Both the position numbers and the translations under genes were made by a program. Below the pieces are notes generated by a model. It was not told where the DNA came from and did no database searches. It worked only from the letters and a program-made list of their open reading frames with translations. From a bacterium (GTDB taxonomy: Bacteria > Patescibacteriota > Minisyncoccia > Phycocordibacterales > Zambryskibacteraceae), in the NCBI GenBank assembly GCA_030649135.1, contig JAUSGI010000007.1, forward strand, positions 1 through 51,165: DNA of 51,165 bases. Reading direction: 5' to 3'. Below, one piece after another: positions 1 to 51,165 of this stretch (the stretch's first letter is position 1; every line of letters begins with the position of its first letter).

Positions 1-1466
<1,466 letters not shown>

Positions 1467-47759: not shown

Positions 47760-48191
47760 TTACCCGGCGTTCAAATTTTTTATATTTGCACTCAGAAAAG
47801 CCTTAATATCTTTAATAATTGGCTCTCTTTTTATGGGTCGGCTACCTGCAATATGTCTAGCAAACCTATAGAGTCTCTCATTACTAGTATGAATCCATTT
47901 GCCATTTTTATAAAGGAAATACAGTAGACTCATCACAGCAATCCTTTTGTTACCATTTTTAAATGGATGATTTTTAATAAGGAGGTAAAATAGCATGGCT
48001 CCCTTGTCTACAATACCTCTATATAGGTCCTTTTTACCAAATCTTGAAAAAGGAGTAGCGAGACAGCTTTCAAGAATGTTTGGAAAACGAGACCCAAACT
48101 CTGGAATAGGCTCACTCCAAGTCATAAACTTCTCTGCAAGATTAAAAGCTGTATATTCTACCTCGGCAATGCCTATAGGTTTAGTTCTCAT
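47760..48191 (-). CDS. doc: Doc/Fic-family toxin (death-on-curing)
   Basis: HPFKNGNKR Fic/Doc active-site motif. Confidence 0.85.
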   Translation of the reverse strand: MRTKPIGIAEVEYTAFNLAEKFMTWSEPIPEFGSRFPNILESCLATPFSRFGKKDLYRGIVDKGAMLFYLLIKNHPFKNGNKRIAVMSLLYFLYKNGKWIHTSNERLYRFARHIAGSRPIKREPIIKDIKAFLSANIKNLNAG

Positions 48192-48442
48192 TCTTTTCCT
48201 AAAGCCTCAAAAGTTTTTCTGTATTCTTTGGTAGCTTTTTCTACCGCCTTTTCAATGTTGCTTTTCTTTTCATTTCCGAGCGACTTGCCTAGAGCTTCTA
48301 ACAAATCCTCATGTGCTACAATATAATTCCTGCCAACTTTTTCTGCTTTTATTTTCCCATTTTTAATACGCTTAAAGACCCCGACACGAGTCATGTGCAT
48401 TATGTTGGCAACCTCAGATGTAGAGTAATATTTTGGGTTCAT
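48188..48442 (-). CDS. Putative antitoxin with N-terminal HTH (excisionase/MerR-like)
   Basis: 4-nt overlap with doc. YSTSEVANIMHMTRVGVFKRIKNGKI is an HTH. Confidence 0.65.
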   Translation of the reverse strand: MNPKYYSTSEVANIMHMTRVGVFKRIKNGKIKAEKVGRNYIVAHEDLLEALGKSLGNEKKSNIEKAVEKATKEYRKTFEALGKE

Positions 48443-48896
48443 ATTTGTATGTTAACATATGTTAACTAACAAGCAAGCAGAGCTACCAACGCATAATGTA
48501 TATTGGGTCGGGCACTGTCCGGAGTTATAACCGTACTCGAGGACAGGGGTTATATGGTTACGGTACGCGAAAAAATCAACAATATCAAGCGCGTTGGGAA
48601 GATTTATGACTTTCCGATGCCCTACCAGCAGAAATAGCCAACTCACCCCAAGTCACCCTAACTCACCCGTTTTTGGCAAAAGTCCGGTCCAAAACCATTT
48701 CACCTTATCCCACCAGTAGCCACCGGTTTTGAGCAAAAGTTCGGAATAAAATCACTTAACCGCAACTAACCTTATCTAACCGTTTTTTGCCCAACTATTT
48801 GCCCCGGTGGCGAGCTTTGTGCCGAGGATCGACGTTTGTACCCACCTTGGCACATCAACCACCCGTTTGACCAAATTTGAACCCTTGGGACGATTT

Positions 48897-48916
48897 GCTT
48901 AATTAAGCAAATATGA
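48897..48916. repeat. 20-bp perfect palindrome ATTTGCTTAATTAAGCAAAT immediately downstream of RT stop
   Basis: Seen directly in the sequence. It closes a 480-bp non-coding region that contains degenerate ~60-bp tandem repeats (ccg/gttttg-caaaagt-cgg). Confidence 0.7.
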
Positions 48917-48921
48917 CCGAC

Positions 48922-49935
48922 TTAATTGGAAGATTTGGGCTTGGACGCTTTGTCGATAATCTTCTGTCGCAATTTCCAGCTGTTGCCATGGCTCATAAGA
49001 CCGAGATACGACTGCACCGTTTCTTCCTTTCCGTCCTTTGCCTTTATATTCCTAAACATCCTCTTTTTGGTTGTCGTCCTTAAGACTTGATGATCCGGAA
49101 AATGCACCCAGCCGAGAAAGTCGACACCCGAAGCGACAGTCTGTATGAAAATCTTATCCGGATGCATGGAGAGCTTGAGCTTGTTTCCTAAAAACTCCTG
49201 CATCGCCGGCAGAATGGTTTCAAGGTACGCCTTGTCCGTCGAAAGGACGGCAAAATCGTCAGCGTAACGCAGATAATATTTCGCTTTGAGGCGATGCTTC
49301 ATAAATTGGTCGAATTCGTTCATGTAAATATTTACCAGAAGCTGGGACGTTAGATTGCCGAGCGGGAGTCCGATGCCGACAGCGTTTGAATGAAAACTCC
49401 GAACGATGACAGATAAGAGATGGAGAATATCTTGATCGGGAATATATTTTGCAGATATGTCCAAGAGAATCGCGTGATCGATGTTTGCAAAAAACTTTCT
49501 GATATCGCATTTGAGCACCCATACCGTCCGAACGTTGTTCTCTGAAACAATGCCGATGAATTTTCTGAATCTGCTGAGAGCTCGATGCGTACCTTTTCCG
49601 TCTTGGCAGGAATTCGAGTCGGAGATAAACGTTTTTGCGAAAAATGGCGACAGTTGCCTATGCAATGCGTGATGTAAAAGCCGGTCTCGAACACTTGCTT
49701 TGTGGATGTCGCGCGGCTTAGGATCGGCGATCTTGAAATGCTGATACGCAGAATGGGTGTATGTTTTCGCCACAAGTTCGCGGTGAAGCGAGATAATGTT
49801 CGTCATCAGATTTCGCTCGAATTCTTGCACATCTTTGCGCGACCTTTTTCCGCGCACGAATTCTTTCCACGCTTCGAGGAGATTTTCGAGCGAAATGATA
49901 TGATTATATGTATGTTGAAATTGGATTCTGGACAT
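48922..49935 (-). CDS. Diversity-generating retroelement reverse transcriptase
   Basis: RT motifs 1-7 with YADDFAV. Motif 4 is IGLPLGNLTSQLL (GxxxSQ, DGR-specific, versus QGxxxSP in group II introns). The N-terminus resembles DGR RTs. Confidence 0.9.
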   Translation of the reverse strand: MSRIQFQHTYNHIISLENLLEAWKEFVRGKRSRKDVQEFERNLMTNIISLHRELVAKTYTHSAYQHFKIADPKPRDIHKASVRDRLLHHALHRQLSPFFAKTFISDSNSCQDGKGTHRALSRFRKFIGIVSENNVRTVWVLKCDIRKFFANIDHAILLDISAKYIPDQDILHLLSVIVRSFHSNAVGIGLPLGNLTSQLLVNIYMNEFDQFMKHRLKAKYYLRYADDFAVLSTDKAYLETILPAMQEFLGNKLKLSMHPDKIFIQTVASGVDFLGWVHFPDHQVLRTTTKKRMFRNIKAKDGKEETVQSYLGLMSHGNSWKLRQKIIDKASKPKSSN

Positions 49936-49967
49936 AACATTGAAGTCACCCCCCCCCGCAGAAGCTT

Positions 49968-50330
49968 TTGCCAGTTTTAGGCAAAGTTAAGGAGTCGTAT
50001 CTTTTGTGGTACAAATTTTATCAGGACTTGCCCAAGGTGCATCGTCATTCTCTCGGCCAGCGCATAGACACATTGTTTGTCGAAGTGATAGAAGCGATAT
50101 CGGCCGCCAGTTTTCTCTCGCCTACAGAGAAACATCCGTATGTTCGTCTCGCGATCAAGAAAGCGGACACCCTCCGTGTACTTCTTTTGGTACTCTGGGA
50201 AACAAAATCTCTCGACGATAAGAAATACATCGCTCTTTCCATAAAGTTGGACGAGGCCGGCAAAATGCTCGGCGGTTGGAACGGCCAGCTCGCAAAACAA
50301 AACTCTCCAGCCAAAGCCGGAGAGAAATGA
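49968..50330 (+). CDS. avd: Avd-like accessory variability determinant (four-helix-bundle / 23S-rRNA-IVS family)
   Basis: WYKFYQDLPKVHRHSLGQRIDTLFVEVIEAI...LDEAGKMLGGW fits the bAvd/PF05635 pattern. AAGGAG RBS 9 nt before an in-frame TTG at 50004. It lies on the opposite strand to the RT and TR sense. Confidence 0.7.
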   Translation: MPVLGKVKESYLLWYKFYQDLPKVHRHSLGQRIDTLFVEVIEAISAASFLSPTEKHPYVRLAIKKADTLRVLLLVLWETKSLDDKKYIALSIKLDEAGKMLGGWNGQLAKQNSPAKAGEK

Positions 50331-50336
50331 AGAGAG

Positions 50337-50462
50337 TTGCGACACGGCGAACGCGAACCCGTTGTCACGATTCCACCTGTTGTCAGGCCTGTCGTTGTAC
50401 GCATTAAGCCAGCGACCATCGTCATTACGGTTCGCATTCAGCAAGTTCGGATCGCCGTCGGA
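50337..50462 (-). repeat. DGR template repeat (TR), sense on minus strand
   Basis: 126 bp, ~84% identical to VR at 50809-50934. Minus-sense reading has 8 AAY (Asn) codons. 14 of 20 mismatches to VR fall on TR adenines. Confidence 0.8.
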
Positions 50463-50711
50463 TTGCGCGAAACATCTTCCATATCACCACCCCTCGAATA
50501 CTCTCAGGGTTGAATCGAATCCGGCATCGAAATGCCTTAATGTCTCGCGCCAAGTATCTTCTTTTTTATTGAAGTTTCTGCATGCACCACTCTATCCGAA
50601 ACCGTGGCCGCGGATACTCTCGATGCATGGATACTGGGTTCGGTAGCGGGAAGCCTTGACCGCCCACATATTCACCTACTGCCACGAATATTATATATTA
50701 TTTTATATTTT

Positions 50712-50753
50712 ATGAAAAAATTTAGCCCCATTCCGACGGATCGGAACGGGGCT
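50712..50753 (-). terminator. Rho-independent terminator downstream of DGR target gene
   Basis: Nested hairpin agcccc-a-ttccga-cgga-tcggaa-c-ggggct followed by an AAATTTTTT run on the minus strand. Confidence 0.7.
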
Positions 50754-50769
50754 AAGGACTAAGTTCAAA

Positions 50770-50783
50770 GGGACTGAAGTCCC
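50770..50783 (-). repeat. Short GC hairpin (gggac-ttca-gtccc on minus strand) 7 nt after VR-gene stop
   Basis: This sits where DGR VRs carry the homing-enhancing hairpin. Confidence 0.5.
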
Positions 50784-50790
50784 GAGGATC

Positions 50791-51165
50791 TTAGTGTTGA
50801 GAACTGACTTGCGACACCGCGAACGCGAACCCGTTGCCACAACCCCACCTGTAGTCGGGCCCGCCGCCGTACGCGCAAAGCCAGCGACCATCGTCGTCAC
50901 GGTCCGCGATCAGCAAGCTCGGATCGCCGTCGGAGTCGTTGATGGGTTCGTGCATGGCAACGATGTACCACAGCCCCATCGCTTCGATCTCCTTGTCCGT
51001 GAACTTCTCACGAATGAGGCAGGCCAGTTCGGCGTTCGGCTTCGAGAGCTTGCGCTTGTCGGCCTCGGCGCGAATCTTCTTCGTGATCCGGTCGTTGTCC
51101 TCGAAGAGCATGCCCTTGAGAACGGCGACTTCGGTCGTCACGCCGTTGGTCGGCTTGAAGTCCGG
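50791..51165 (-). CDS. DGR target protein with C-terminal C-type-lectin-like variable module (5' end beyond window)
   Basis: ORF is open to the window edge. C-terminal ...DRDDDGRWLCAYGGGPDYRWGCGNGFAFAVSQVSSQH is encoded by the VR. ~58% GC. Confidence 0.75.
   Translation of the reverse strand, partial: PDFKPTNGVTTEVAVLKGMLFEDNDRITKKIRAEADKRKLSKPNAELACLIREKFTDKEIEAMGLWYIVAMHEPINDSDGDPSLLIADRDDDGRWLCAYGGGPDYRWGCGNGFAFAVSQVSSQH
50809..50934 (-). repeat. DGR variable repeat (VR) at 3' end of target gene
   Basis: Aligns to TR. Asn codons of TR are replaced by Ile/Asp/Cys/Gly/Tyr codons. A shared GC-rich 3' block gggttcgcgttcgcSgtgtcgcaa is IMH-like. Confidence 0.8.

Follow-up and report, generated by a model that had tools for sequence, protein, structure and literature searches.

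Gene content and organization of the locus

The window, a 51,165-nt contig (JAUSGI010000007.1, assembly GCA_030649135.1) taken over its whole length, carries the following genes, repeats and flanking region at its right-hand end.

48500–48921, strand not assigned: region downstream of the RT, ~420 nt, conserved in the closest relatives only
48922–49935, minus strand: reverse transcriptase (RT) of a diversity-generating retroelement (DGR), 337 aa, with YADD and LGNLTSQ motifs
49968–50330, plus strand: accessory gene avd, 120 aa, running opposite to the TR and RT
50329–50462, minus strand: template repeat (TR), 134 nt, rich in AAY codons
50801–50934, minus strand: variable repeat (VR), covering the last ~44 target codons, with an IMH-like 3′ block at ~50801–50830
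50791–51165, minus strand: DGR target gene, 3′ part only (124 codons and the stop), truncated by the contig end

All parts of a DGR are present in the window, and we consider it highly probable that they form a chromosomal element of the Patescibacteria (CPR) lineage. Each component of the complete DGR proposed in the original prediction (RT, Avd, TR and a VR-bearing target) was recovered at or near the position first assigned to it. The cassette reads target (with VR), spacer with promoter-like site and leader, TR, reversed avd and RT, and this gene order and spacing are constant in nearly all relatives with enough flanking sequence. From the coordinates, the core order TR-(avd on the reverse strand)-RT is that of Architecture B3, which makes up 90% of the CPR DGR set (Wu et al. 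2018, PMC5758913). We found more than 536 close relatives in metagenome-assembled genomes (MAGs) of Patescibacteria, which also supply the nearest relatives. The element matches both this standard CPR layout and the cellular Patescibacteria clade 2, whose targets lack recognizable domains (Roux et al. 2021, PMC8144416). The published CPR elements and the one described here agree in gene order and avd orientation, in having a single adjacent small target without recognizable domains or membrane anchor, in their chromosomal, non-phage location and in the frequent non-adenine differences, with no difference at the level of the element. The DGR itself is accordingly ordinary, CPR bacteria being known to be rich in exactly such cassettes, and the novelty once attributed to it does not hold.

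Two other parts of the genomic setting first described for the element were not borne out. Homology with the closest relatives stops at ~48500, before the neighbouring toxin–antitoxin (Fic/HTH) pair to which the element had been linked, and the GC content of the window (0.449) is not especially low. The region at 48500–48921 contains degenerate direct repeats and a small conserved ORF at 48503–48637 on the plus strand; it may be part of the element. A 17-mer from the leader matched 74 contigs in IMG/VR, of which only one carried the cassette; the other 73 were taken as chance matches. An exact look-up of the RT returned a single 1.3-kb Logan contig, with no added flank past the window end.

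The RT, predicted with YADD and a GxxxSQ motif, is indeed a 337-aa minus-strand ORF with YADD and LGNLTSQ, the latter aligned to IGSLTSQ of the Bordetella bRT. Its best PDB match was this bRT (8ub7; E 2.5e-43, 151.6 bits), ~85 bits ahead of the group II intron RTs (best E 2e-17, about 66 bits). Judged by motifs and scores, it is a DGR-type RT, having [ILV]GxxxSQ in motif 4 and YxDD and lying nearer to bRT than to intron or retron RTs; a grouping with the latter, named beforehand as evidence against a DGR, did not emerge from these comparisons, and bRT is its best solved relative. The Avd-like ORF gave a near-full-length match to NCBIfam DivGenRetAVD (model positions 1–102 of 104; E 1.4e-15; 57.5 bits, curated cut-off 80) and a match to Pfam bAvd (39.9 bits, cut-off 40), and we assign it as the accessory protein Avd, as had been supposed, though both model scores lie below the curated cut-offs. 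Its position and orientation are identical in every relative with enough flank, and the Avd homolog of locus L085 has a precomputed PF22296 match. Minus-strand ORFs of 155 and 130 aa across the TR and antisense avd were rejected as genes because the TR reading frame simply runs on into antisense avd.

Adenine-biased divergence of the template and variable repeats

TR and VR are 134 nt each, offset by 472 nt and 83% identical; the 126-bp pair originally delimited at 50337–50462 and 50809–50934 is real, and its extent is slightly longer than was thought. The VR lies at the 3′ end of a coding target, with adenines at codon positions 1 and 2, and its ~44 C-terminal codons agree with the ~40 expected at the end of a gene running off the window. 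We realigned the repeats and tabulated the mismatches by base, and obtained the count reported before: 20 mismatches in the 126-nt core, consisting of 14 at minus-strand TR adenines, 4 T→C, 1 C→T and 1 C→G. Over 134 nt, 14 of 23 mismatches fell at A, a base that makes up 22% of the TR (Fisher P = 1e-5). Eleven of the TR codons with A at position 1 or 2 are AAY, and the TR Asn codons become S, I, D, D, C, G, Y and G in the VR, a series already noted from I onward.

We compared the window with 65 TR/VR pairs that passed the filter (RT 59–96% identical), giving 66 pairs in total. In nearly all of the 65, 80–100% of mismatches were at A, and their pooled changes comprised 1109 A→N against 64 non-A. 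The relatives also show passage from TR to VR: non-A substitutions private to the TR recur in the cognate VR in L013, L011, L007 and L084/85. The same adenine bias is present in the window but weaker than in these relatives: the fraction at A (67–70%) was the lowest among the 66 pairs, and its 7 non-A mismatches exceeded the maximum of 5 found elsewhere.

The 3′ ends of the repeats suggest an IMH/IMH* pair, that is, an identical GC-rich block and, beyond it, differences fixed at repeat positions 127, 130 and 131 (50336/50808, 50333/50805 and 50332/50804), which are common to the window and all nine close relatives compared. The one-base difference within the GC-rich block that was formerly read in this sense exists (50346/50818), but is private to this contig.

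Target protein

The target fragment is identical to the NCBI entry 'hypothetical protein Q7R69_02440, partial'. Although it had been taken for a protein of no known family, it belongs to a very large CPR family: the homologs number more than 1200, measure about 211 aa when complete, and have 2111 representatives at the 50%-identity cluster level. No Pfam domain was found in this family. Full-length homologs mostly lack a signal or TM-like segment, which does not favour the surface protein originally envisaged.

A comparison with the folds of Mtd and TvpA had been suggested. AlphaFold with the shallow alignment A2 (51 sequences, ≥66% identical) reached a pLDDT of 47 and the model was discarded; the full-length model made with the deeper alignment A3 gave a pLDDT of 96.4. 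This model confidently predicts a C-type-lectin-like fold, a fold that would display the VR as in other variable proteins with C-type-lectin (or Ig) folds. Sequence identity to TvpA (2y3c) and Mtd (1yu0) is 8–9%, the target is much smaller than either, and its N-terminal α/β part differs from theirs, with no homolog detected.

We computed the entropy across target homologs, and found 2.05 bits at codons with a templating A at position 1 or 2, compared with 0.20 at other VR codons and 0.33 outside the VR (P = 1e-11). Two homologs, P0001 and P0002, are identical outside the VR and different within it. At the family level, therefore, variability among the homologous sequences is confined to adenine-templated codons, the pattern of diversification that a DGR leaves.

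Structured RNA elements flanking the TR and VR

On the minus strand, the spacer upstream of the TR and the region following it carry these elements.

50690–50718, minus strand: promoter-like site before the leader, TTTTCA-17-TATAAT, 10 of 12 matches
50463–50683, minus strand: structured leader RNA, ~221 nt, directly 5′ of the TR (alignment A1, RNAalifold)
50667–50646, minus strand: leader helix P1
50626–50584, minus strand: leader helix P2
50565–50557, minus strand: A-rich junction with the long-range strand AAAAGAAGA
50550–50539 with 50476–50465, minus strand: leader helix P3
50536–50523, minus strand: leader hairpin P3a
~50510–50489, minus strand: leader helix P3b
50294–50333, minus strand: 3′ elements of the template RNA, all antisense to the end of the avd coding sequence (final codons and stop)
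50333–50325, minus strand: TCTTCATTT, pairs with the leader
50324–50303, minus strand: 9-bp hairpin with UUUG loop, terminator-like
50302–50294, minus strand: UUUUGUUUU, after the 9-bp hairpin

RNAalifold applied to alignment A1 (57 loci) yielded 47 pairs in the leader, 41 of them with compensatory changes. The alignment cells were paired in 96.5% of cases, compared with 39–51% when the partners were slid, and none of 500 shuffles reached the observed values. The ggcat/atgcc hairpin recognized earlier upstream of the TR corresponds to P3a; it is present, but at 50523–50536 instead of 50521–50534, and its UUCG loop is not conserved. In a naive all-against-all scan of column covariation, the main helices were recovered together with many spurious 3-bp helices, and the long-range duplex was missed because its register shifts in divergent members. 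The post-TR hairpin was located with a direct stem finder. Pairing between the leader strand AAAAGAAGA and the post-TR strand TCTTCATTT was stronger for cognate (–5.93 kcal/mol) than for non-cognate combinations (–4.24 kcal/mol; permutation P ≤ 1e-4). The centre of the leader thus covaries with the 9 nt directly after the TR, which ties leader, TR and 3′ module into one fold.

No Rfam 15 family, RT-10 included, matched the leader at threshold in the window and 13 relatives. The only match to an RT motif was RT-7 (17.6 bits, gathering score 116.8), and this and other matches with E > 0.1 were treated as chance.

A hairpin followed by a T-tract occurs after the TR in 95% of the 57 loci, compared with 24% of shuffles. 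If it is efficient, this element would end transcription ~360 nt before the RT start, so that the RT would have to be expressed by read-through or from a promoter not yet recognized; the interval 50300–49936 contained no promoter-like site on the minus strand. At the other end, the –10 box of the promoter-like site is the first conserved block past the AT-rich spacer.

The region after the VR has three elements of its own.

50759–50794, minus strand: hairpin after the VR, core GGGAC-TTCA-GTCCC at 50770–50783 (RNAfold)
50752–50770, minus strand: three CTT[ATG]G pentamers with 7-nt spacing, a repeat array after the VR that is absent after the TR
50722–50755, minus strand: intrinsic-terminator-like hairpin of the target gene, 15 pairs, then A3T6

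The GC mini-hairpin and the intrinsic terminator expected after the VR were thereby located at 50770–50783 and 50755–50722, respectively. The outer helix of the post-VR hairpin (CTAAG/CTTAG) begins at the stop codon; many relatives have a small hairpin of different sequence at the equivalent place (RNAfold, judged informally), and most have a strong hairpin at the place of the terminator. CTTNG pentamers after the VR averaged 2.97 per 80 nt in 65 loci, compared with 0.24 elsewhere, with a preferred spacing of 7–8 nt.

The leader RNA, the leader/post-TR duplex, the antisense hairpin embedded in avd and the CTTNG array are the parts that seem to be new. None of them is mentioned in the CPR DGR literature compared, which included PMC5758913 and PMC8144416 and left the primary CPR DGR paper (Paul et al. 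2017) outside the comparison.

State of the copy and alternative explanations

The excess of non-adenine mismatches could mean that the element is a DGR whose copy in the window is quiescent or decaying, with a VR that is no longer rewritten and repeats that are drifting apart. Repeat positions 27, 39 and 60 are T in the window TR and C in the window VR, where they correspond to 50908, 50896 and 50875. Among the 12 close relatives with a usable TR, position 27 is C in all 12, position 39 in 10 (L007 and L011 have the window's T) and position 60 in 10 (L007 and L009 have T). Since these three C→T changes in the TR are missing from the VR, homing would not have taken place after they arose. The VR has three more private non-A changes (positions 78, 94 and 117), the non-A count is the highest of all pairs, and cassette remnants with a truncated RT exist (L084/L085). 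However, the RT and avd ORFs are full length, the former with its catalytic YADD, and no RNA helix is broken, nor is the 3′ module or the promoter-like box. In addition, TR position 57 is T in the window and in none of the 12 relatives, and this private T is also present in the window VR, so that homing followed at least one private change in the TR. Multiple non-A differences between TR and VR are also reported as frequent in CPR DGRs (PMC5758913). From its sequence the copy looks intact, and we regard quiescence or decay as possible though unlikely.

An assembly artefact, in which the contig end joins the VR of one strain to the TR of a close strain, might produce the same excess. The distance from the VR to the contig end is 230 nt, breaks in or close to the cassette are common among related contigs, and relatives with 92–96% identity at the DNA level occur in other public samples, a distance of the same order as the non-A divergence between TR and VR (6 in 126 nt). 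The T at position 57, common to both repeats and found in 0 of 12 relatives, argues that the window TR and VR belong together, and the 338-nt spacer between them is continuous with no sign of a junction. We consider such an artefact improbable.

We also considered that the leader might lie outside the working RNA of the retroelement, as a separate small RNA or a 5′ regulatory region whose place upstream of the TR is incidental. Its putative role in cDNA synthesis is drawn from sequence comparison, and the protein-binding RNA elements of the Bordetella DGR are downstream, not upstream, of the TR (bioRxiv 10.1101/2023.10.23.563531). Nevertheless, in all 57 loci the leader adjoins the TR on one strand, with its end 2–3 nt ahead of the repeat, and G-U pairs fix that strand. 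The 9 nt immediately past the TR covary with the central part of the leader, the leader varies along with the RT clade and has no ORF behind it, and we judge an independent leader to be very improbable.

The reading that the RT derives from a group II intron, a retron or a defence system and that the repeat is an ordinary partial gene duplication is already contradicted and carries practically no weight: although the top NCBIfam score was for a group II intron RT model (TIGR04416), its 135 bits are far under the cut-off of 300, as are those of the retron model NF038233 (53.7 bits, cut-off 235) and the Drt models under theirs, neither a curated RT/maturase score with intron RNA domains nor a curated retron RT score with msr/msd RNA was found in the window (no Rfam match to group II intron or retron RNA), bRT leads the solved relatives by the margin given above, and the mismatches are adenine-specific and codon-phased.

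Proposed mechanism and comparison with other DGRs

We propose that the element most likely works as a DGR as follows. The promoter at ~50718–50690 would drive an RNA in which the ~221-nt folded leader is followed by the TR (134 nt) and a short 3′ module. This module pairs back onto the middle of the leader, so that the TR would be held as a closed loop, and would terminate in the 9-bp hairpin and U-tract, the putative transcript end. A complex of RT and Avd would then copy the TR to cDNA, misreading adenines, and the cDNA would replace the VR in the target gene. The VR site would be distinguished from the TR by the three fixed 3′ differences, and probably also by the VR-only hairpin and CTTNG array. 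The outcome would be a C-type-lectin-like binding protein with ~19 adenine-templated codons randomized.

Several of these features are common to the window and the DGR of Bordetella phage BPP-1 (mtd-avd-TR-brt): a bRT-like RT (E 2.5e-43), an Avd, a C-terminal VR that is mutagenized at adenines and lies in a C-type-lectin fold (here predicted), an IMH-like 3′ block, a hairpin after the VR, a stem-loop immediately after the TR, and RNA upstream of the TR that pairs with RNA downstream of it. Unlike in BPP-1, avd here lies between TR and RT and points the other way. BPP-1 has a 140-nt structured 'Sp' RNA (Avd-binding, priming, thumb-ring and bRT-binding elements) downstream of the TR, whereas the window has only ~40 nt between the TR and the U-tract and its large ~221-nt fold upstream. 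The targets also differ, that of BPP-1 being a phage tail fibre and that of the window a small protein without predicted signal or TM segment. The leader resembles the RT-10 motif (Rfam; Weinberg et al. 2017, PMC5737381), a Bordetella-type RNA between TR and RT, in being a conserved structured RNA that adjoins a DGR TR and is proposed to act in reverse transcription; however, the two lie on opposite sides of the TR, and the RT-10 model scored below threshold on the leader.

We tentatively propose, at somewhat less than even confidence, that the working RNA of Patescibacteria DGRs has an apparently undescribed architecture that departs from the Bordetella paradigm. In this view, a discrete RNA of ~390 nt would have a large protein-binding scaffold 5′ of the TR, would be closed by the covarying 9-nt duplex between leader centre and post-TR strand and would end in a hairpin and U-tract antisense in the avd stop region. 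The duplex may be of the template:primer or 'stop' kind; the unpaired A at 50555, which is nearly invariant, is the candidate priming nucleotide, and the recipient site would be marked by the CTTNG heptad array instead of, or besides, a cruciform.

The unusually clean covariation of the template RNA fold, brought out by comparing about 60 relatives, suggests that the RNA scaffold for self-primed, adenine-mutagenic reverse transcription can sit on the opposite side of the template from that in the only biochemically studied system. With a second, very different RNA it could be asked which elements DGR reverse transcription requires universally, and the compactness of the system (RT 337 aa, Avd 120 aa, RNA ~390 nt) may be of interest for DGR-based mutagenesis tools. 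For the CPR bacteria themselves, a large and apparently soluble target family with a confidently modelled lectin-like fold sharpens the question of what these cells diversify inside, or unanchored to, the cell.

A DGR of a patescibacterial lineage

The original prediction of a diversity-generating retroelement (DGR) was correct overall, apart from small coordinate errors and a few further points. The ORF at 48922-49935 (minus strand) encodes a reverse transcriptase (RT) of 337 aa that contains YADD and LGNLTSQ motifs and matches Pfam RVT_1. Its top match among solved structures was the Bordetella phage bRT (8ub7; E 2.5e-43, 151.6 bits, residues 10-320 aligned), group II intron RTs came next at ~66 bits, and the NCBIfam intron, retron and Drt models all scored far under their cut-offs, as expected of the DGR-type enzyme that had been claimed. 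The predicted accessory gene avd (49968-50330, plus strand) was also recovered, aligning over its full length to the DGR Avd model (E 1.4e-15) and matching Pfam bAvd, though both scores were slightly below the curated cut-offs. The start codons of RT and avd are divergent and 32 nt apart (49936-49967).

The template repeat (TR, 50329-50462) and variable repeat (VR, 50801-50934) extend over 134 nt rather than the 126 nt first proposed. Within the 126-nt core, the described 20 mismatches were found, 14 of them at minus-strand adenines of the RT-proximal copy (adenine enrichment, p=1e-5): 11 to G, 3 to T and 0 to C. The remaining core changes were T to C (four), C to T (one) and C to G (one). In the target reading frame, S, I, D, D, C, G, Y and G stand in place of TR AAC/AAT codons, confirming the predicted replacement of Asn codons.

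We scanned one genome per species and obtained >536 stretches encoding RT relatives, the best 80 of which were 59-97% identical; the nearest were almost all in metagenome-assembled genomes (MAGs) of Patescibacteria (CPR). Nearly all sufficiently flanked loci shared one layout: a target gene with the VR, a spacer of ~340 nt, the TR, avd on the opposite strand and RT. In nearly all of the 65 TR/VR pairs that passed our filter, 80-100% of mismatches fell at TR adenines (pooled, 1109 A-to-N changes, comprising 678 G, 257 T and 174 C, vs 64 others). The adenine spectrum of these relatives (L002-L081) was skewed (A to G 61%, A to T 23%, A to C 16%), which may reflect either a misincorporation bias of the RT or selection favouring codons for Gly, Asp and Ser.

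The element has 'Architecture B3, TR-(avd)-RT', and its taxonomy fits DGR clade 2, which is cellular and Patescibacteria-restricted (PMC8144416). A 17-mer from the cassette matched 74 viral contigs, only one of which carried the cassette itself, indicating a cellular rather than phage-borne element. DNA identity across the whole cassette was 82-96% between MAGs labelled as different candidate phyla. We conclude that the element is a real DGR, an ordinary representative of a lineage that is well documented.

Homology with the closest relatives ends sharply at ~48500. Beyond it, at 47760-48442 (minus strand), a gene for an 84-aa HTH_17 protein precedes and overlaps one for a Fic/Doc-family protein (143 aa, Pfam E 5.7e-9); they plausibly form a toxin-antitoxin-like pair, which lies outside the region common to related cassettes. 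The stretch of ~420 nt that follows the RT stop codon (48500-48921) is conserved (87-95%) in just the closest relatives (L002, L004-L006, L016) and gave no Pfam or Rfam match. Within it lie a perfect palindrome (ATTTGCTTAATTAAGCAAAT), degenerate direct repeats in three or four copies (TTTTGC.CAAAAACGG...) and, at 48503-48637 (plus strand), a small ORF. The L004 version of this ORF differs by substitutions that are conservative for the encoded protein. Near-identical remnant cassettes with RT cut off after ~415 nt occur at two loci (L084 3001-4910, L085 690-2600), and transposase genes (rve; Transposase_mut) lie directly upstream of the target gene at two others (L004 3351-4310, L083 1536-2759), one of which has a target shortened at its N-terminus to 171 aa. 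At the window start, the 5' part of a 23S rRNA gene (1-1466, minus strand) matches model positions 1-1309 with 1466 nt; the ~150 extra bases are possibly an insertion or intervening sequence of a type common in CPR rRNA.

Hypervariability of the target family

The last ORF, truncated by the contig end to 124 aa, is identical to the NCBI entry 'hypothetical protein Q7R69_02440, partial [bacterium]'. It has >1200 homologs, nearly all of 205-217 aa and none with a Pfam domain; with clustering at 50% identity, a profile search yielded 2111 representatives. When 51 close homologs were aligned, the 20 codons whose TR template codon has A in its first or second position showed an amino-acid entropy of 2.05 bits, compared with 0.20 at other VR codons and 0.33 outside the VR (p=1e-11), and 11 VR positions differed between proteins identical over the 82 residues preceding the VR. 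This hypervariability is the family-level counterpart of the read-heterogeneity test originally suggested.

With a deeper alignment, AlphaFold gave a confident target model (pLDDT 96.4). The proposed surface location is not supported, because a hydrophobic segment of signal-peptide or membrane-helix type was absent from a full-length homolog and present in only 9 of 266 family members, in agreement with reports of CPR DGR targets without membrane anchors (PMC8144416). Outside the VR (50935-51165, minus strand), the target gene has a GC content of 0.593 and a GC3 of 0.84, compared with a GC3 of 0.54 for RT and avd and a contig GC of 0.449; foreign origin, biased conversion and selection against adenines are candidate causes.

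Structured RNA around the template repeat

Conservation of the VR-TR spacer is uneven: the target terminator is followed by an AT-rich stretch and then by sequence conserved from a TATAAT box to the TR. The features of the template RNA are as follows.

50695-50690, minus strand: TATAAT box within a promoter-like site (10/12 matches)
50463-50683, minus strand: leader, a structured RNA of ~221 nt directly 5' of the TR
50333-50294, minus strand: 3' module, TCTTCATTT directly after the TR, a 9-bp hairpin with a tetraloop, then UUUUGUUUU; terminator-like in the scan

An alignment of the leader from 57 loci revealed a multi-helix fold of 47 pairs, 41 of which showed compensatory double changes. In the named structure 96.5% of cells were paired, compared with 39-51% when partners were slid by 1-3 columns, and compensatory cells numbered 624 vs 75-149; 0 of 500 shuffles attained the observed values. 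Insertions were located in hairpin loops, and G-U pairs that hardly vary assign the fold to the strand of TR and RT. The ggcat/atgcc hairpin noted originally is one helix of this fold, although its loop varies. No Rfam 15 family matched the leader in the window or 13 relatives, and the only DGR-flanking RNA in the accessible literature was the Bordetella-type RNA between TR and RT (RT-10, PMC5737381).

A hairpin and T-tract followed the TR at 95% of loci vs 24% of shuffles (stems 6-11 bp). Furthermore, a mid-leader segment, AAAAGAAGA (50565-50557), is complementary to the 9 nt after the TR. Across 50 distinct sequence pairs, cognate duplexes were more stable than non-cognate ones (-5.93 vs -4.24 kcal/mol; permutation p<=1e-4), and some members had wholly different yet complementary strands (e.g. 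CATACGA/TCGTATG in L076).

Across 49968-50462, the end of avd falls within the 3' module of the template RNA, and the entire module is antisense to the last avd codons and stop codon. Because the avd and RT starts are also divergent, any transcript that reads through from TR into RT must be complementary to avd mRNA; an unterminated avd mRNA would also be complementary to the TR itself, and no plus-strand terminator was found after avd.

Downstream of the VR, the predicted small GC hairpin (50770-50783) and strong terminator-like hairpin (50755-50722) were both found. CTT[ATG]G pentamers, preferentially 7-8 nt apart, also form an array in the 80 nt after the VR (window 50752-50794, minus strand), located at the same place in L002-L081 and averaging 2.97 per 80 nt at 65 loci vs 0.24 elsewhere in the same loci. 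Since the array is not present after the TR, possible functions are marking of the recipient site and binding of a protein.

State of this copy

The window pair has seven non-adenine mismatches, the highest of 66 pairs (maximum elsewhere 5, median 1). We aligned TRs and VRs of the 12 close relatives having a usable TR. At repeat positions 27, 39 and 60, the window TR has T, giving AAT codons, and its own VR has C; the relatives' TRs have C in 12/12, 10/12 and 10/12 cases, respectively. The three are C-to-T changes in the TR that the VR has not received. At position 57, T occurs in both window repeats and C in 12/12 relatives, and the differences at 78, 94 and 117 are private to the window VR. 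The single-base difference proposed to separate the 3' blocks of VR and TR (IMH/IMH*) proved to be one of these private changes; the differences that the window has in common with all nine aligned close relatives lie at 50336/50808, 50333/50805 and 50332/50804. In the relatives, TR-private non-adenine substitutions recur faithfully in the cognate VR (L013, L011, L007, L084/85), which is direct comparative evidence of TR-to-VR transfer.

Most simply read, the window lineage homed after the TR change at position 57 and has not done so since the other three; the DGR is possibly quiescent in this strain. Its ORFs are intact, as are all its RNA elements. A contig end that is chimeric between strains would also explain the TR/VR discord, but is less likely.

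Proposed mechanism

In the model based on cryo-EM of the Bordetella system, all protein-binding elements lie downstream of the TR, including an Avd-binding stem-loop right after it, commonly of 9 bp with a tetraloop, and the upstream and downstream TR flanks form a duplex; that study covered just 40 nt upstream of the TR (bioRxiv 10.1101/2023.10.23.563531). The RNA structure described here is established, and by analogy its parts may be assigned roles. The post-TR hairpin would be the Avd-binding element and possibly a terminator too, the long-range duplex may be the counterpart of the flank duplex or of a template:primer duplex, and the leader would supply an RT-binding scaffold. Efficient termination at the hairpin would mean that RT requires read-through or another promoter, and the promoter scan detected none. 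Although prior descriptions may exist beyond the accessible literature, the interest for specialists lies in the conserved RNA made up of leader, TR and 3' module and in the post-VR CTTNG array, rather than in the element itself.
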